From a virus (lineage: Duplodnaviria > Heunggongvirae > Uroviricota > Caudoviricetes), in IMG/VR virus record IMGVR_UViG_2695420523_000020: 19,354 nt of DNA. One strand, written 5' to 3'. The position numbers and the translations under genes are program-made. The notes beneath the pieces were generated by a model. It had not been told where the DNA came from. It worked only from the letters and a program-made list of their open reading frames with translations, and did not search any database. This document shows positions 2,165-19,354 of the stretch, in pieces (position 1 is the first letter of the stretch; the number at the start of each line of letters is the position of its first letter).

Positions 2165-2353
2165 TCACGAGGACAGAAGTTTCTCGCAATTAAAATTTAT
2201 CAGCTTTACTTTCTGCTCTCTGGACACGCCTGCTTCTTTTTTCCCTGAGAGCATTTTTTCGCATTCTGATTTCGTTAATTTAGATTTTGAATATCTTGTC
2301 CAGTTAGTAGGAGTGCCACCTTCTTTTTCAATAGTGGCAGTTATTTTATACAT
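2165..2353 (-). CDS. Small prophage protein, YdaC-like (62 aa)
   Basis: ATG at 2351-2353 preceded by a perfect SD GGAGGTG (complement of 2357-2363). Sits between xis and lar as ydaC does in Rac. The longer 86-aa ORF start at 2425 overlaps lar and lacks an SD. Confidence 0.55.
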   Translation of the reverse strand: MYKITATIEKEGGTPTNWTRYSKSKLTKSECEKMLSGKKEAGVSREQKVKLINFNCEKLLSS

Positions 2354-2596: not shown

Positions 2597-3406
2597 TTAT
2601 TCTTCTGAATTATCGATCACACTGTATTCCCCGGTTAATACAGAGGAGTCTGCCGGATCGATTGTCAGTGGTTCCTTTTCATCCATTGATACTGCACGCT
2701 GGATTTCAATTGAGACAGGCAGGTATTTAAACAGGCGACGAATAGCCGTTTTTTTTGCCATTTCTTCCCAGTGAGTTACCCATGGCCCGTTATTACCAGC
2801 CTTACTCTGGCTGCGCACCAGCTCAATCTGTTTGCGCGTCATAACTTCAAACTGAGTACCTCCGTCTTTCAGTCTTGCGACAGCATAGACGTGGGTAACC
2901 GGGGCATCTTCGTTTTCTCCTGGGCGGTGTATTAACTTTTCATCAAGGCCAAATTCGAAATTAAATTCGTCACCTTCACGGACAACACGGGCTGACAGGC
3001 TGGCGATTTGACCTGAACGGCGAGCCAGATCAATCATGCCGCGATAGCCAATGATTAGCTGAACGTTTTTTTTACCGCTCTTTTCGTTTTTATTACCAAA
3101 AGGCAGTAAATATGCATGACCGAGGGCGCTACCTGGCTCAAGTCCGAGCTGTGAACACTGTACGATTGCACTGACAAAACTCATAGTGTCACAGTTTCCT
3201 AACGCCGGAACTTTACGAATTTCTGTGGTGGCGATACGGATCATACGTTCAGCCGTCATATGGCGTGGAAGAGCTGCTGCCAGTTGCTCTTTCATTGATG
3301 GCTGGTTAATAAAACTAATCACGTCGTTATTTTTAATTGCTGCTGGTGCACGGTTTCCCTGAGTTTTTTGCAGATCGGCTTTTGCGATTGGTGGTTGCTT
3401 AGTCAT
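2597..3406 (-). CDS. recT: RecT single-strand annealing recombinase (269 aa)
   Basis: Translation from [23 protein letters not shown] matches E. coli Rac RecT as recalled. ATG at 3404-3406 sits a few nt from the recE stop (translational coupling). The ORF-track start at 3463 adds 19 residues not expected for RecT. Confidence 0.9.
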
Positions 3407-6596: not shown

Positions 6597-6767
6597 TTAA
6601 AGTTCGTGTGCCATCTGGTCTTTTTCGGCACAAGCTTCACTGCAATATTTTCTCGGTTCGTCTTTTGATAAAGTCCCGTGCATGAAGTGAAGCATTCTTT
6701 CAATAGCTTTGCTTTCTTCAACGTCTTTTTTGCAAAGGTGGTAAGCACATTTTATTTTCTTAGTCAT
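6597..6767 (-). CDS. ydaE: YdaE-like small zinc-binding protein (56 aa)
   Basis: Translation [56 protein letters not shown], with Cys/His ligands. Its ATG overlaps the kilR stop (TGATG). Confidence 0.75.
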   Translation of the reverse strand: MTKKIKCAYHLCKKDVEESKAIERMLHFMHGTLSKDEPRKYCSEACAEKDQMAHEL

Positions 6768-6988
6768 CACCATGACTCCGCCTTTACAGGTAAACCATCA
6801 CGACCGAGGAAGACTTTAATCATGCAGTCAGTAATGCATGTTTTTGTAGTCAGGCTACGAATATAAAGTTTTCGCTTTTTAATATTGTTTGCCGAGGCGA
6901 TATATGTCCGGCCTTCATGAAGAACATAATCGCCAGGAGTCACACACTGACGTGGTATTTCATCAGTTCCGAAGTGATGAGCAATCAT
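6767..6988 (-). CDS. kilR: KilR cell-division inhibitor (73 aa)
   Basis: Translation [42 protein letters not shown]... is near-identical to Rac KilR as recalled. SD AAGGAGATAA upstream of the ATG at 6986-6988. Confidence 0.85.
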
Positions 6989-7034: not shown

Positions 7035-7589
7035 CTATTTAATACTCAGCAACTGCTCGACGGTCATATTTTTAATTGCGCTTCGGTTTACAAGAGTCCA
7101 GCCCTGTTTCTCCAGATAAAGGCGGAAAGTGTCCAGGGTACAGACGAGAGCGCCATCAGGAACGGTTTCAGTGAATTCGACGTTGCCGAATTTGTCGAAG
7201 CGAACAACCAGAGTGCGCCCATCGCCCGGAATGATTTTGTTTGTGGGAGTGGTATTATTCTGGCGTAGCTCTGCTTCCATGCGGTCGAACTCAGCGATGT
7301 AGGCCTCTTTGAATGCAGCGGCTTTTTTGCCAGTGAAACCCATCACCAGGAAAACGAAGCCGTTTTTGGTGATTTGGTACATTGGGAGTTTGCGCCCGGT
7401 TGAGTCGGTGTATTCACTTGGCTTAAAATTAAGCTCAGTGAATTCTGAGGAACATTCCAGAGCTTCAATTTTTTGAATGACGTTTTTATGCAGCTTGCGG
7501 AAAAACTCTGCAACTGCAACAGACGTAGTGACAGCACGACCATTTTCGATGGTTACGTCAGGGTGAGAAAGGGTAGGGATAGTAGCCAT
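7035..7589 (-). CDS. Rha-family phage regulatory protein (184 aa from the internal ATG; the ORF is open to 7883)
   Basis: Rha-like conserved block VTIENGRAVTTSVAVAEFFRKLHKNVIQKIEAL...KLPMYQITKNGFVFLVMGFTGKKAAAFKEAYIAEFDRME. Start chosen at ATG 7587-7589 (SD gagg), so the domain begins near residue 10 as in typical Rha proteins. The upstream in-frame 98 codons contain a terminator-like hairpin and non-protein-like composition. Confidence 0.6.
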   Translation of the reverse strand: MATIPTLSHPDVTIENGRAVTTSVAVAEFFRKLHKNVIQKIEALECSSEFTELNFKPSEYTDSTGRKLPMYQITKNGFVFLVMGFTGKKAAAFKEAYIAEFDRMEAELRQNNTTPTNKIIPGDGRTLVVRFDKFGNVEFTETVPDGALVCTLDTFRLYLEKQGWTLVNRSAIKNMTVEQLLSIK

Positions 7590-7755
7590 GATGGCAGCCT
7601 CTAGTGATAAGTTGGTAAACTCACCACCGGAGGTGCAAATCTCATGGGTGGTGAGACGTACAGGGTTTGCACTACCGGTCACTAGAGAATCCGGCCCGCC
7701 CGAAAACGGCCCCATACGCCCCACCATAATCTGAATGTGGCTGCGCTTTACGCAT

Positions 7756-7778
7756 AAAAAAACCGCTTTGGCGCGGTT
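7756..7778 (-). terminator. Hairpin plus T7 on the minus strand
   Basis: Minus strand reads aaccgc-gccaaa-gcggtt followed by TTTTTTT (plus-strand A-run 7756-7762). It lies inside the putative N-terminal extension of the Rha ORF. Confidence 0.4.
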
Positions 7779-8061
7779 ATGCGCTCTAGTGATCATCGGG
7801 GTGCAAATCCCGGCACCCGTTTTATGAGGTGCAGGTGCACTATAATTCCACCCGTTCTGGTTTTCAATAGCTACATTCAACATTTTCTCTCACCTTTCAT
7901 CACTGAAGTGAACTTTGTTGATGCGGTGCCTGGTGCCTCCAGGTGACGTTAACCAGTTAACAATTAACGCCGGATATTTCACCCATAACTCTGCTACGAA
8001 GGACAATAGCTTTTTAACTGTTCCGCGTGCGCTTAGCCGCATTCACCGCATCACAAAATTC

Positions 8062-8113
8062 ACTTTAAAAAGGGCGGACATCAGTCGAACTTCAAGAAAA
8101 AACTGATGCCGCC
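8062..8113 (-). terminator. Long hairpin plus T-run on the minus strand, ~200 nt downstream of the ydaG-like gene
   Basis: Stem ggcggcatcagt / actgatgtccgcc (12 bp with one bulge, 16-nt loop), followed on the minus strand by cTTTTTaaa. Confidence 0.45.
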
Positions 8114-8311
8114 AAGACTACACACAGCAGTGTTGTTATTCACAACCGGAGGCGCACTCCCACCATTTAAATTTAACAGACAAGACCGACTCTTTATGGA
8201 TACCGGAAATGCGCCTTCGTGTTATGCCCGGTTTTATTTCACCACCTCCGGGCTTTGGTGGCCTCGGCTATACCTCTACAGCGAGAATATTGAATTAATC
8301 CAATAAATGGA

Positions 8312-8464
8312 TTAGCTGGTATTTTTGGCAAGCCAGCGACGTGCGCCTGTTTCAGTTTTAAATGTTTTGCTTTTGGTATACGTCATGGCGGTGAACGTTC
8401 CATCCTGGTTGGGGAACACGCCACACACTAGGGATTCGTTGTTGCCGAGGTCGATTTTTTGCAT
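8312..8464 (-). CDS. YdaG-like small protein (50 aa)
   Basis: ORF below the track threshold: MQKIDLGNNESLVCGVFPNQDGTFTAMTYTKSKTFKTETGARRWLAKNTS. Lies immediately downstream of the ydaF-like gene in the leftward operon, in the Rac ydaF-ydaG position. Confidence 0.55.
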   Translation of the reverse strand: MQKIDLGNNESLVCGVFPNQDGTFTAMTYTKSKTFKTETGARRWLAKNTS

Positions 8465-8474
8465 TTTGCGAATC

Positions 8475-8609
8475 TCACATCTTGTTGCTGCATATAGCGG
8501 CTTCTGCCTGCCAGAGATCCCAGTCGTTGCTGCGTAGAGCCTGTACAGCTTGGCTGTAAGTGATACCGCAACAATCCATCAAATACTGAACTACTTCGTA
8601 ATGCACCAT
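8475..8609 (-). CDS. YdaF-like small protein (44 aa)
   Basis: ORF MVHYEVVQYLMDCCGITYSQAVQALRSNDWDLWQAEAAICSNKM with a strong SD AAGGGAGAG 6 nt upstream of the ATG at 8607-8609. Confidence 0.55.
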   Translation of the reverse strand: MVHYEVVQYLMDCCGITYSQAVQALRSNDWDLWQAEAAICSNKM

Positions 8610-8675
8610 TTTATCTCTCCCTTTAACGCCGGGTGGCGGAACTAAAACCTACAGCGCCGTGCTGCTTCTGTAATA

Positions 8676-8704
8676 ATATTAGTTATGTTAATATTAATGA
8701 TCAA
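8676..8704 (-). promoter_or_regulatory. Putative leftward early promoter (pL-like) driving ydaF-ydaG
   Basis: Minus strand TTGATC (-35, complement of 8699-8704), 17-nt spacer, TAATAT (-10, complement of 8676-8681). An inverted repeat atcaac-N16-gttgat lies just upstream as a possible operator. Confidence 0.45.
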
Positions 8705-8844: not shown

Positions 8845-9309
8845 CTATTTCTTCATGCGTTTTTGAGCTGCCAGCATATTTTCAAATGCTTCTTTGTAGA
8901 GTTCATTCTGACCTTTAAGTCTTTCGATTAGTTTTGCTTTTTCTGATTCGGGAAGGATATCAAAAAGATCTAGTAAATCAGCTTGTTGCTTGTTAACCAT
9001 CCGCCAACCTTCGCCTTCGAAACTTTCGTCATAAGTTCCTGAGGAACGGACGTAATTCATCAGATCAGCTAAATCAGGCCTCAACTCTTCAGGCTTAACT
9101 CTTAGTAATACAGCGAATTTTAATGCCGCATCAGTATTAAGTGGAGCCTTTCCGTTGAGATAATGGCTAACCGCAGATTGCGCCTCAAAACCCATTAGCT
9201 CGGCAGCAAGCTCCTGAGTCAGTTTGAGCTCTCTTTTTTTTGCATCCCAGATTGCGCGCAGACGTTGCGTAGCTTCCGGCGATGCGATTTCTTCGCGTTT
9301 TCTTCTCAT
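8845..9309 (-). CDS. racR: Prophage repressor, RacR/cI-like HTH protein (154 aa)
   Basis: Helix-turn-helix segment LTQELAAELMGFEAQSAVSHYLNGKAPLNTDAALKFAVLL. Divergently oriented to the cro-like ydaS across a ~100 bp operator region, the classic immunity layout. No S24 peptidase domain seen. Confidence 0.7.
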   Translation of the reverse strand: MRRKREEIASPEATQRLRAIWDAKKRELKLTQELAAELMGFEAQSAVSHYLNGKAPLNTDAALKFAVLLRVKPEELRPDLADLMNYVRSSGTYDESFEGEGWRMVNKQQADLLDLFDILPESEKAKLIERLKGQNELYKEAFENMLAAQKRMKK

Positions 9310-15735: not shown

Positions 15736-15864
15736 ATTCATTCCGTATGGGAATTCCCATATCGGGCAAAAACGGTTTGCTGTAAAGCGAGAGTTAAGTA
15801 GAATTGCTGCGGGTGCTTGAGGCTGTCTGCCTCGGGCATGCCGCCGTAAGGCAGACAGAGAAAA

Positions 15865-15935
15865 GCCCCAGTTAACATTACGCGTCCGGCAAGACGCTTA
15901 ACATTAATCTGAGGCCATATCTATGCGACACATAG
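15865..15935 (-). ncRNA. Sok-like antisense RNA (approximate position)
   Basis: Inferred from hok/sok architecture: antisense to the hok leader around the mok-like start. Possible minus-strand promoter TTGACC-17-CTAATC inside the mok/hok leader. Exact ends not determinable from sequence alone. Confidence 0.3.
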
Positions 15936-15982
15936 AGATTAGCCTCTTACGGACCGAAAGGTCAAGGAGAAGCAGGCTATGA
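15923..15982 (+). CDS. mok-like leader ORF (19 codons) overlapping the hok start
   Basis: ATG at 15923; its stop TGA overlaps the hok ATG (ATGA). Much shorter than plasmid R1 mok. Confidence 0.35.
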   Translation: MRHIEISLLRTERSRRSRL

Positions 15983-18169: not shown

Positions 18170-18245
18170 GGCCCTTTAGCTCAGTGGTGAGAGCGAGCGA
18201 CTCATAATCGCCAGGTCGCTGGTTCAAATCCAGCAAGGGCCACCA
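18170..18245 (+). tRNA. tRNA with CAU anticodon (Ile2 ileX/ileZ-like, or Met)
   Basis: 7-bp acceptor stem ggccctt/aagggcc, D-arm TAGCTCAGTGG, anticodon loop CTCATAA, T-loop GGTTCAAATCC, encoded CCA end. Close to E. coli ileX as recalled. Confidence 0.85.
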
Positions 18246-18345: not shown

Positions 18346-18422
18346 GCGTTGTTAGCTCAGCCGGACAGAGCAATTGCCTTCTAAGCAATCGGTCAGTGGT
18401 TCGACTCCACTACAACGCGCCA
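18346..18422 (+). tRNA. tRNA-Arg (anticodon UCU, reads AGA)
   Basis: Acceptor stem gcgttgt/acaacgc, anticodon stem attgc/gcaat with loop CTTCTAA (UCU), T-arm agtggTTCGACTccact, encoded CCA. Confidence 0.85.
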
Positions 18423-19187: not shown

Positions 19188-19324
19188 TTTTTTTGTTTGC
19201 TGTTTATTAAAAACACTTCTGCATGGTGAATCCCCCTGTGCGGAGGGGCGATCAGCAACCAGGTATATGGGATAATCGCGGATTCAGGTGCTGATACTGA
19301 ATTCACCGGGAGGCACCCGGCACC

Positions 19325-19354
19325 ATGCAAGAAAAAGAATGTGCATGCAAACAT
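19325..19354 (+). CDS. 5' end of an unidentified gene, truncated by the window edge
   Basis: SD GGGAGG 8 nt upstream of ATG 19325 (MQEKECACKH...). Only 10 codons are visible. Confidence 0.3.
   Translation, partial: MQEKECACKH

Follow-up and report, generated by a model that had tools for sequence, protein, structure and literature searches.

In phages P1 and P7 (immI, c4-icd-ant), N15 (cA/antC) and P4 (seqA-CI-seqC), a C4-family RNA comes from the leader of the operon that it controls. Processing of the operon leader sets the mature C4 RNA free, a step that involves RNase P in P1; control is translational in P1 and acts by termination in P4. IsrK/STnc1160 has been equated with the SeqA/CI RNA of P4 as well as with the systems of P1 and N15 (PMC3632133; PMC4825925). 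In Gifsy-1, IsrK opens an inactive structure of the mRNA so that orf45, which overlaps the C4 sequence, is translated with coupling to the downstream gene (PMC4825925). A C4 copy in strain EDL933 is very abundant, with 88-nt reads and a ribosome coverage of 0.06 (PMC5331693). In the Rac prophage of K-12, the sRNA KilS has its own start site and has been verified by northern blot and Hfq RIL-seq (PMC8175672).

Here we examine positions 7590-8311 of a 19,354-nt stretch of viral DNA (IMG/VR record IMGVR_UViG_2695420523_000020; the window), which carries a Rac-like prophage of E. coli. The region is a row of already-described prophage regulatory RNAs on the minus strand, namely KilS, an STnc100-like element, IsrK and C4 (Table 1). 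Very likely it is the stretch of a Rac-like lambdoid prophage's leftward early operon that does not code for protein, with two known RNA modules juxtaposed on that strand. Since the row precedes an antirepressor-like gene, we regard the locus as real and functional but essentially ordinary: each element is itself known, and the only undescribed parts are the structures flanking KilS. The predicted RNA ends are placed from K-12, Salmonella and EDL933 data.

Table 1. Features of the region and of the adjoining gene, by position in the window.
Feature	Position	Strand	Evidence or remark
Module 1: Rac/Qin-type leader ahead of cell-division-inhibitor gene (kilR or dicB)	8283-7884	minus	
Stem S1, CCACC with GGUGG	8261-8257 with 8246-8242	minus	interleaved with S2
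Hairpin S2, GCCCGG (8253-8248) with CCGGGC (8231-8226)	8226-8261	minus	conserved, co-varying
Long hairpin, basal stem GGCGCAUUUCC with GGGAGUGCGCC	8151-8215	minus	upstream of and overlapping KilS start
KilS homologue, DicF-family sRNA	8067-8163	minus	K-12 Rac kilS alignment, Rfam, folding
STnc100-like structured core	7914-8060	minus	Rfam STnc100 (sub-threshold), alignments, covariation
Module 2: inserted P1-immI/P4/N15/Gifsy-1-type antisense cassette, with Rha-family gene from 7589	7883-7590	minus	
isrK σ70-type promoter, TTGAAA-17-TATAGT	7839-7867	minus	scan, 10/12 matches; start ~7832
IsrK sRNA	7756-7832	minus	Rfam isrK (RF01394), 68.6 bits against gathering 50
C4-complementary site b1, AUUUGCAC	7807-7801	minus	in IsrK hairpin loop
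C4-complementary site a1, UCACUAGAG	7792-7784	minus	in IsrK
C4-type antisense RNA	7644-7731	minus	Rfam C4 (RF01695), 78.1 bits against gathering 45, full length 1-87/87
C4 recognition loop a', CUCUAGUGA	7687-7679	minus	
C4 single-stranded b', GUGCAAA	7672-7666	minus	
Rha leader	7590-7643	minus	fold z -4.7, Shine-Dalgarno paired
Leader target b2, UUUGCAC	7639-7633	minus	exact complement of C4 b'
Leader target a2, UCACUAGAG	7607-7599	minus	exact complement of C4 a'
Rha-family regulatory gene, antirepressor-like, 184 aa	7035-7589	minus	Pfam Phage_pRha, E 2e-31

RNA elements and coding potential of the region

Covariance-model searches identified C4 (E 4e-14) and isrK (E 4e-13) above their gathering scores across the whole window, and DicF (E 1e-7) and STnc100 (E 5e-7) below theirs when the region was searched alone. 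Folding of the minus strand gave low z scores for most elements (-3.2 for KilS, -3.7 for the STnc100-like core, -2.3 for IsrK, -3.1 for C4 and -4.7 for the Rha leader), and alignment revealed compensatory changes in relatives. An earlier note, made from the letters of the sequence, had described the region as highly structured; the Rfam matches and folding scores show that this goes beyond chance, except that folding gave no thermodynamic support for the segment with pseudoknot topology (8164-8283, z +0.1).

All six features listed in that note are found in the sequence, some of them 3-10 nt from where it had put them. The minus-strand hairpin with a U-run at 8062-8113 (GGCGGCAUCAG...CUGAUGUCCGCCCUUUUU) is present, as is the minus-strand terminator at 7756-7778, which a terminator scan also called, and the interleaved stems gcccgg/ccgggc and ccacc/ggtgg have the positions it gave. 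The 9-bp inverted repeat ctcaccacc/ggtggtgag lies at 7620-7628/7647-7655, about 10 nt to the left of its reported place at ~7630-7665; the GTTAAC repeats span 7948-7968, not 7951-7969; and the plus-strand hairpin gggtgc/gcaccc, which mirrors the first two IsrK hairpins on the opposite strand, is at 7799-7818, not 7802-7826. The interpretations offered with these features were partly correct. All of the signals are minus-strand RNA features, in agreement with the suggestion of sRNAs of the leftward early operon. The alternative of a novel RNA element is not supported for the main parts: C4 and isrK score above gathering, KilS is ~95% identical to its K-12 counterpart, and the core is a sub-threshold relative of STnc100.

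Module 1 (7884-8283) is colinear with the kilR-sieB intergenic region of K-12 Rac at ~90% identity. Within it, the KilS block matches K-12 kilS (b4833) at 103 of 108 positions with flanks colinear at ~90%, and the K-12 kilS ends map to 8163 and 8067 of the window. KilS combines a 5' hairpin with a seed that is left unpaired (...AcUGCUGUGUGUAGUCUU) and with a Rho-independent terminator, whose stem spans 8113-8073 and whose U-run spans 8071-8067. The Rfam DicF model matches its 3' half (8072-8126) with 42.8 bits, below the gathering score of 48 (E 1e-7). KilS and DicF have the terminator scaffold GGCGG...CCGCCC(U)n in common but differ in their seeds: the DicF seed UUUCUGGUGAC is absent from the KilS of the window, which has UGCUGUGUGUAGUCUU. 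Because the seeds differ, the targets should differ as well. By analogy with K-12, the KilS homologue is probably a trans-acting, Hfq-dependent sRNA. Its seed is conserved and unlike that of DicF. It would start on its own at ~8163 and end at ~8067, and operon transcripts would need to read through its terminator to reach the downstream genes.

The right-hand neighbour of the region is ydaF (DUF1391) rather than the ydaG-like gene named in the earlier note. Nor does the region take the place of sieB, as that note had it, given that in K-12 Rac sieB adjoins the homologous leader and does not replace it. We consider it extremely improbable that the region is a decayed gene, whether a remnant of sieB or of another early-left Rac gene. 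K-12 Rac does carry sieB between ydaF and the leader, and several ORFs of 50-66 aa are present here, but sieB similarity is absent from the window (blastn gave no match, and tblastn none better than E 2.8), and in K-12, too, the homologous 400 nt are intergenic and non-coding. Among the short ORFs, 7915-8106 (plus) and 7890-8042 (minus) are broken in relatives, 8106-8306 (plus) has mismatches by codon position of 4/4/1, 5/5/2, 3/3/3 and 0/3/4, which is no codon-position bias, and there are no Pfam matches. Hidden small proteins were also considered and rejected, as the 48-66-aa ORFs are without Pfam matches and their frames are unconserved or lack codon bias. No intact gene spans the region in related prophages or phages, apart from 'Rha/antirepressor' annotations that are over-extended through IsrK and C4. 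The earlier note had named such a gene as grounds for rejecting its observation, and this check does not refute it.

The whole composite is present in 63 of 5,426 complete E. coli genomes, and no phage record covering at least 80% of the region was found. The window is not colinear with NZ_CP027548 beyond ~16000.

The IsrK-C4-Rha cassette and its recognition code

The isrK promoter is the sole match of the promoter scan in 7500-8700, and the start of the Rfam IsrK model falls at 7832. The IsrK terminator (7778-7756), which was called by the terminator scan, has a U-run following 7778-7761. A weak Rfam c4-a1b1 match overlaps IsrK here, and in related loci c4-a1b1 matches above threshold overlap isrK. 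As to whether the prophage repressor controls isrK, a comparison of its promoter with the immunity region turned up no shared 9-mer.

C4 folds into a long basal stem with two inner hairpins (MFE -41.6 kcal/mol). Exact complements of both its loop a' and its single-stranded segment b' occur twice, in IsrK and in the Rha leader. Leader site a2 overlaps the Shine-Dalgarno sequence AGAGG (7602-7598), 8 nt before the ATG at 7589. The leader segment GGUGGUGAG (7628-7620) has two possible partners, the 3' strand of the C4 stem or a downstream segment, and the second pairing sequesters the Shine-Dalgarno; the 9-bp inverted repeat mentioned above is the first of these pairings.

We examined the specificity of these contacts at 16 loci from many genera by comparing the energies of cognate and non-cognate duplexes. 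The a' and b' sequences of C4 vary among the loci, and the IsrK sites and leader sites vary in step with them. C4-IsrK duplexes averaged -19.5 kcal/mol for cognate pairs against -12.3 for non-cognate pairs, and C4-leader duplexes -20.8 against -11.4 (16 loci; sd 3.2 for non-cognate pairs). The cognate partner ranked first of 16 at 15 of the 16 loci, for IsrK and leader targets alike. The order isrK-C4-Rha was present in 14 of 20 related loci scanned; these were from Shigella, Citrobacter, Symbiopectobacterium, Arsenophonus, Marinomonas, Pseudoalteromonas, Acinetobacter and Enterovibrio.

In the circuit that we propose, the near-consensus promoter would give rise to IsrK, mostly terminated at 7756, while read-through RNA would be processed to yield C4. 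Loop a' and segment b' of C4 would then pair with leader sites a2 and b2, and because a2 overlaps the Shine-Dalgarno, this pairing is expected to block Rha translation. Sites b1 and a1 of IsrK would act as decoys identical to the leader sites; with these decoys on IsrK, the IsrK:C4 ratio would set whether the Rha regulator is made. Rha-family proteins are 'regulatory', and we assume that the protein has antirepressor activity here; the resident CI-like repressor is at 8845-9309.

Taken literally, 'ORF-poor' does not apply to 7590-7883, as the Rha frame runs on without a stop as far as 7883; this extension has no coding signature. In the PGAP annotation, 7590-7883 encodes an N-terminal 'Ash' domain that is fused to Rha in a protein of 282 aa, a reading that we find very improbable. 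It accounts for the open ORF (7035-7883), which has a Shine-Dalgarno-like AGGUGA before an ATG at 7883, and for a match of the 7590-7883 translation to Phage_ASH (PF10554) above cut-off (49.6 bits against 26, E 6e-13). The RefSeq annotation agrees with it, and in 9 of 16 loci no stop interrupts the frame across IsrK. However, 7590-7883 is fully taken up by the genes of two Rfam RNAs together with a promoter and a terminator, and the start codon that this reading proposes is upstream of the isrK promoter. By codon position, the variable columns number 46/47/96 in the Rha coding sequence but 40/49/43 upstream of it. Indels upstream are not multiples of three (1, 5 and 6 nt among close relatives), and stops break the frame in the other 7 of 16 loci, in three of which a stop falls 15-42 nt before the Rha ATG; the Rha start context GAGGnnGCCAUnAUGGCUACUAUCCC is itself conserved. 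Most likely, the 282-aa 'Rha' (7035-7883) over-extends and its Phage_ASH match is a translation of the IsrK and C4 RNA genes. The Phage_ASH family would then probably reflect conserved RNA sequence read as protein. This corrects the annotation: the RefSeq 282-aa 'Rha family' protein appears to be translated from two RNA genes, and the true regulator would be 184 aa.

The work on Gifsy-1 raises a second possibility, which we regard as open to considerable doubt. Under this dual-function model of IsrK, the read-through isrK-(orf45)-Rha mRNA would be locked in a fold that is not translated until IsrK, binding it in trans, exposed the start of a small ORF. This ORF overlaps C4 and is here fused in frame to Rha, so that its translation would drive that of Rha, and C4 would be a processing by-product, not a repressor. 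The Salmonella homologue shows 139-fold translational activation by IsrK, a need for the orf45 start codons, and compensatory mutants, and a fusion of orf45 to the downstream gene has also been noted in S. dysenteriae (PMC4825925). At our locus, an in-frame AUG at ~7727 lies within the C4 5' stem (AUUAUGGUGGGG), and the leader by itself sequesters its Shine-Dalgarno (z -4.7). Since the orf45 frame is fused to Rha here, some N-terminally extended protein is possible. On the other hand, covariation with the C4 loops is just as tight for a2 and b2 as for the IsrK sites, which the P1-type model predicts and the Gifsy-1 model does not need. The upstream frame, with its frame-breaking indels, stops in 7 of 16 loci and no codon-position bias, is likewise at odds with the Gifsy-1 model, as is the abundant, untranslated C4 RNA of EDL933 (PMC5331693). 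Counting against the P1-type model, co-expression of the C4-equivalent RNA in Gifsy-1 did not relieve IsrK toxicity (PMC4825925). The P1-type and Gifsy-1 models share the IsrK-C4 pairing, and both may hold.

Structures flanking KilS

Upstream of KilS, S1 and S2 interleave in the topology of an H-type pseudoknot whose third loop is rich in A, and the conserved anchor CAUAACACGAAGGCGCA follows immediately on their 3' side. A hairpin at the S2 position co-varies among relatives (GCCCGG/CCGGGC, GCCUG/CAGGC, CCCGG/CCGGG, CCGGAU/AUCCGG, CCCUGA/UCAGGG), and S1 is retained in just three variants (CCACC/GGUGG, UACCAC/GUGGUA, AACCAC/GUGGUU). The support for 8226-8261 comes from this covariation, which points to a conserved hairpin and possibly a pseudoknot. 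The basal stem of the long hairpin keeps GCGCA/UGCGC across 21 variants folded with RNAfold, and the next 5-6 pairs co-vary (UUUCC/GGGAG, CGGCGA/UCGaCCG, UUACGCA/UGCGaUAG, CUaCGCAG/CUGCGaCAG). Inside this hairpin, TGtTAAATT (8178-8170) resembles an extended -10 element and stops 7 nt short of the KilS 5' end; it was read by eye alone, and a simple promoter scan made no call there.

Downstream of KilS, the STnc100-like core comprises a 10-bp closing stem (8053-8044 with 7928-7919), an inner GUUAA hairpin formed by the GTTAAC repeats, and a terminal hairpin CCUGG-AGGCA-CCAGG (7943-7929). Rfam STnc100 (RF02076) matches it with 40.6 bits (gathering 47, E 7e-8) over model positions 22-154 of 206 only. 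Alignments of the core with Rac, with Qin and with a full STnc100 copy elsewhere in the window (19192-19348, 107 bits) agree, and a homologous core fills the kilS-kilR spacer in Rac and the dicF-dicB spacer in Qin. Across 28 diverse members, the paired share of cells is 88%, compared with 42-47% in slid controls, and 84 cells are changed on both sides, compared with 31 in shuffles. In the core of the window, all pairs of the closing stem, the outer pairs of the inner hairpin and the terminal hairpin form, and the first STnc100 hairpin forms only 3 of its 5 pairs. Typical STnc100 members start ~10 nt past a TTGACA-17-TAAATT promoter and stop at a terminator just ahead of the holin gene.

The STnc100-type fold is found both beside KilS/DicF and at the head of late operons. 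The full copy at 19192-19348 corresponds to a partial pseudogene in the PGAP annotation.

The conserved structures around the KilS/DicF terminator might be cis-acting elements that govern its read-through in the N-less Rac/Qin class of prophages, although we think this improbable. The structures that could be involved, with the same small likelihood, are the upstream hairpin/pseudoknot and long hairpin and the downstream promoter-less STnc100-like core. If this were true, kilR/dicB, recET and the downstream genes would be controlled by an RNA device that works through antitermination or processing, a functional analogue of HK022 put, and the STnc100/PasD RNAs that head late operons would use the same fold. 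Homology to the HK022 put RNA (putL/putR) was considered and rejected, as the HK022 genome lacks both the STnc100-core motif and the leader anchor motifs; the analogy is functional only.

Comparison with known systems

The locus illustrates that prophage RNA control is modular: a P1/P4-type cassette with a private recognition code sits inside a Rac-type early operon, next to a DicF-family sRNA that has kept the DicF scaffold but not the DicF seed. Cassettes of this kind are numerous in STEC strains, and the a/b codes therefore predict antirepressor cross-talk between prophages.

The KilS leader resembles that of K-12 Rac (b4833, in the kilR 5' UTR) at ~95% over the whole sRNA, in its flanking conserved sequences and in its operon. 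In K-12, kilR directly follows the KilS leader and sieB lies upstream, whereas the window lacks sieB and has the IsrK-C4-Rha cassette as an insert that separates the leader from kilR. With Qin DicF (RF00039), KilS shares an early-operon position ahead of a division-inhibitor gene and the terminator scaffold; the spacer downstream, the anchor upstream and the long hairpin are homologous to those around the Qin dicF-dicB spacer. DicF is processed from a longer RNA, while KilS is apparently a primary transcript, and the 5' seed is UGCUGUGUGUAG in KilS and UUUCUGGUGAC in DicF.

The core is like STnc100/PasD (RF02076) in its closing stem, inner hairpin and invariant terminal hairpin UCACC-nGG-AGGCA-CCn-GGCACC, with compensatory changes. 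It differs in having no strong promoter or terminator of its own, in its unconserved first hairpin, and in its location in an early-left operon after a terminator.

The cassette agrees with Gifsy-1 isrK-orf45/STnc1160-anrP in its Rfam families and their order, with a promoter, a 77-nt IsrK with its terminator and a C4-like processed RNA, and an antirepressor-like gene last; IsrK is complementary to the C4 region in both. Here, in contrast, the orf45 frame and the gene after it are fused, the a and b recognition sequences are not those of Gifsy-1, and the cassette lies in a Rac-like early-left operon between the KilS leader and kilR.

In common with P1/P7, N15 and P4, the locus has a C4-family RNA derived from the leader of the operon under control, with two short elements that each recur on either side, as a1 and b1 upstream and as a2 and b2 at the ribosome-binding site downstream, and a few bases set specificity, as in P1/P7 heteroimmunity. 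Unlike in P1/P7, there is no icd-like ORF and the Rha Shine-Dalgarno is itself overlapped by a2; the upstream sites belong to a separately terminated sRNA, IsrK; and the output is a Rha-family protein in place of P1 Ant.

Two RNA modules within the leftward early operon

The E. coli prophage that makes up the window is lambdoid, of Rac-like type, and integrated beside ryeA/ryeB. Gene order on the minus strand (Table) places 7590-8311 inside the leftward early operon, where the right-hand neighbour is ydaF/DUF1391 and not, as the earlier note had it, a ydaG-like gene. That note described the region as protein-poor and densely structured, and all six sequence features that it listed are present, three of them shifted by a few bases. 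We conclude that the region is functional RNA. The observation is real, but the element is not novel: two known modules are juxtaposed, the Rac/Qin KilS/DicF leader, recognized through K-12 kilS, and an IsrK-C4 antisense cassette. Rfam models for C4 and isrK reach their gathering thresholds in the left half, while DicF and STnc100 match below threshold in the right. The suggestion of a decayed gene found no support: no sieB remnant was found in the window, ORFs of 50 and 63 aa are broken in relatives, and a plus-strand ORF of 66 aa lacks third-position bias across relatives.

Several STEC chromosomes match 7400-8500 at 99.9% identity. Of 5,426 complete E. coli genomes, 63 have the composite, while its separate pieces are found in >4,600; the whole is in no phage record; Rac-like phages carry the right half, and Stx2 phages and mEp460 the left. 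NZ_CP027548 is 99.9% identical around the region; beyond ~16000 identity falls to ~93% with a different arrangement, which makes the late region a mosaic when compared with the best match of the early region. Other curated sRNAs of the window (2169-2347, 463-607, 15811-15981) are RalA, the RalR antitoxin; SraC/RyeA, which overlaps SdsR/RyeB at the border of the prophage; and a sok antitoxin, adjoining hokD.

Coordinates of features in the window and of STnc100-type examples in comparison viral contigs
Feature	Position	Strand	Remark
CI-like repressor	8845-9309	minus	
UBA-like ORF	8475-8609	minus	44 aa
ydaF/DUF1391	8312-8464	minus	right-hand neighbour
KilS homolog	8163 to 8067	minus	K-12 kilS ends mapped; 103/108 identity in block
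isrK	7756-7832	minus	Rfam, gathering threshold, 68.6 bits
b1	7807-7801		IsrK hairpin loop; exact complement of C4 b'
a1	7792-7784		IsrK; exact complement of C4 a'
C4 antisense RNA	7644-7731	minus	Rfam, gathering threshold, 78.1 bits
b2	7639-7633		Rha leader; exact complement of C4 b'
a2	7607-7599		Rha leader; exact complement of C4 a'; overlaps Shine-Dalgarno AGAGG
Rha-family gene	7035-7589	minus	left neighbour
kilR	6767-6988	minus	then ydaE, recE, recT, ralR
STnc100-type, L097	4019-4151		
STnc100-type, L105	281-413		
STnc100-type, L057	8572-8704		

KilS and its bordering structures

From 8283 leftwards, the right half is colinear (~90% identity) with the spacer between kilR and sieB in K-12 Rac, in which the sRNA kilS is annotated. 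This sRNA was predicted from Hfq RIL-seq and verified by northern blot, with its own start site and yncL as a partner; DicF is nowhere mentioned (Bar et al. 2021, PMC8175672). Given the mapped ends, the terminator-like hairpin at 8062-8113 is the KilS terminator. By eye, a candidate extended -10-like element, TGtTAAATT, lies 5' of KilS and ends 7 nt before 8163. The Rfam DicF model fits 8072-8126 at a sub-threshold score (42.8 vs 48 bits, E 1e-7), and in alignment Qin dicF falls in the same columns as KilS. All 29 variants share the scaffold GGCGG...CCGCCC(U)n, with compensatory stem changes (for example AUCAG/CUGAU to ACCAG/CUGGU), whereas the 5' seeds (window 8114-8135) fall into discrete types: DicF (UUUCUGGUGAC), KilS-type (AyUGCUGUGUGUAGU) and at least one further, typified by locus L149. 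On this alignment KilS is a DicF paralogue, sharing its terminator scaffold and differing in a swapped seed, which suggests that seeds are exchanged on a constant scaffold in DicF-family sRNAs.

Upstream of KilS lies a conserved anchor, CAyAACrCGAArGCGCA. The hairpin 5' of it is wholly different in sequence between variants: GCCCGG/CCGGGC in the window and Rac type, CCCUGA/UCAGGG in the Qin type, and GCCUG/CAGGC (L072, L131), CCCGG/CCGGG (L007) and CCGGAU/AUCCGG (L078) in other comparison loci. A long hairpin 3' of the anchor has a co-varying basal stem. Of the interleaved stems noted earlier at 8226-8261, the hairpin stem is kept; the second, ccacc/ggtgg, recurs in only two other variants with flanking pairs altered (UACCAC/GUGGUA, AACCAC/GUGGUU), so the H-type pseudoknot is plausible for a subfamily, not in general. 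Minus-strand folding energies are below those of shuffled sequences for every sub-element except this segment, 8164-8283, which is not thermodynamically distinctive. No Rfam family covers the part upstream of KilS, and HK022 has no similarity to the KilS-flanking elements.

Downstream, the kilS-kilR and dicF-dicB spacers both conserve 7914-8060, which aligns to STnc100 model positions 22-154 (40.6 vs 47 bits). One of its hairpins consists of the GTTAAC repeats, which lie at 7948-7968 rather than 7951-7969. Searching viral contigs with the invariant terminal hairpin pattern returned at least 120 stretches with 96 distinct cores. In 28 diverse members, with the terminal hairpin fixed by the collecting pattern, four alignable helices are 88% paired, versus 42-47% in slid controls, with 84 double-sided changes versus 31 in shuffles. 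Typical members start ~10 nt after a TTGACA-17-TAAATT promoter and end at a terminator just before holin/endolysin genes; the early-operon copy is without a strong promoter or terminator.

In many phages (viral contigs L031-L150), an STnc100-type RNA follows a λ pR'-like promoter and ends just before the holin gene, where λ has its 6S late-leader RNA; some (L038, L093) carry 2-3 copies within 1-4 kb. The literature gives no function for STnc100 or PasD. A full-length STnc100 copy (19192-19348, plus strand, 107 bits) occupies the window's right end, downstream of two tRNA genes at 18170-18242 and 18346-18419; it has the closing stem and terminal hairpin in common with the promoter-less 7914-8060 copy, and NZ_CP027548 (L001/L004) annotates the matching stretch as a partial pseudogene. 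In viral contig L115 (~4465, minus strand), a core variant whose form lies between the DicF-spacer type (GCUGAAUGCGGCUCAGCGCGCGCGG...) and that of STnc100 (CCGGG/CCCGG terminal hairpin) hints at a continuous family.

The IsrK-C4 cassette upstream of the Rha-family gene

Scanning 7500-8700 for promoters and terminators gave a single promoter, at 7867-7839 on the minus strand (TTGAAA-17-TATAGT, 10/12 matches). The same scan returned the terminator-like hairpin at 7756-7778 as 7778-7761, which is IsrK's own terminator, and the plus-strand hairpin, found at 7799-7818 instead of 7802-7826, is the complement of the first two IsrK hairpins. In C4, a' is the hairpin loop CUCUAGUGA and b' the single-stranded GUGCAAA; exact complements of each occur twice, in IsrK and in the Rha leader, whose Shine-Dalgarno lies 8 nt 5' of the ATG at 7589. 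The 9-bp inverted repeat, reported at ~7630-7665, occupies 7620-7628 and 7647-7655 and pairs leader GGUGGUGAG with the 3' arm of the basal C4 stem. This pairing would expose b2 in a loop; alternatively, GGUGGUGAG can pair downstream and bury the Shine-Dalgarno (leader fold z -4.7).

With the 184-aa Rha protein as query, species-representative genomes yielded 26 related loci. Rfam placed isrK and then C4 directly upstream of the Rha gene in 14 of 20 loci scanned, from Shigella and Citrobacter to Marinomonas, Pseudoalteromonas and Acinetobacter. The a' and b' elements vary among loci, and the IsrK and leader sites vary with them. Mean summed duplex energies are -19.5 kcal/mol (C4-IsrK) and -20.8 kcal/mol (C4-leader) for cognate pairs, against -12.3 and -11.4 kcal/mol (sd 3.2) for non-cognate pairs; for either target, the cognate ranks first of 16 in 15/16 loci. 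The elements also reassort, locus L012 combining the a' of L008b with the b' of L008a. At the sequence level, this shows a recognition code between C4, IsrK and leader. Rfam c4-a1b1 passes threshold overlapping isrK in two loci, which confirms that IsrK is the a1/b1 element in the form of an sRNA. In L008 (Symbiopectobacterium purcellii), two complete IsrK-C4-Rha cassettes with different a/b codes stand in tandem (2252-2446 and 3211-3399, ~950 nt apart).

RefSeq/PGAP calls a 282-aa Rha protein (7035-7883, minus strand), whose 98-aa N-terminal extension matches Pfam Phage_ASH (PF10554) above threshold (E 6e-13). We rejected 7590-7883 as a coding extension. Counted by codon position in eight enterobacterial relatives, the variable columns upstream of ATG 7589 are 40/49/43, versus 46/47/96 in the Rha CDS; upstream indels are of 1, 5 and 6 nt, and stops close the frame in 7/16 loci. 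In EDL933, few small RNAs exceed a C4 copy in abundance, and its ribosome coverage is 0.06 (PMC5331693). Together these observations indicate that the extension is likely an annotation artefact, IsrK and C4 RNA genes having been mis-annotated as protein, and Phage_ASH itself probably reflects, perhaps for the most part, conserved RNA genes read as protein.

A P1-type mechanism is best supported, in which the cassette would control the Rha-family regulator: C4 would mask the Rha ribosome-binding site, and IsrK would act as a decoy for C4. Limited translation may start at an in-frame AUG in the C4 stem, the counterpart of orf45 in the dual-function IsrK model of Gifsy-1, which we retain as a rival mechanism.

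What is modestly new here is the relationship of KilS to DicF, together with conserved structures bordering both sRNAs, the occurrence of an STnc100-like fold within an early operon, and the likely mis-annotation of IsrK/C4 as protein. IsrK and C4 were already described as structural homologs of P4 seqA and CI RNA, with similar systems noted in lambdoid Salmonella prophages (Barquist et al. 2013, PMC3632133). Characterization of Gifsy-1 isrK-orf45-anrP included discussion of the P4 analogy and a ~80-nt processed RNA, STnc1160 (Hershko-Shalev et al. 2016, PMC4825925), which occupies the position of C4. Such matched variation and reassortment of a/b elements and sites is characteristic of the P1/P7 c4 heteroimmunity code.
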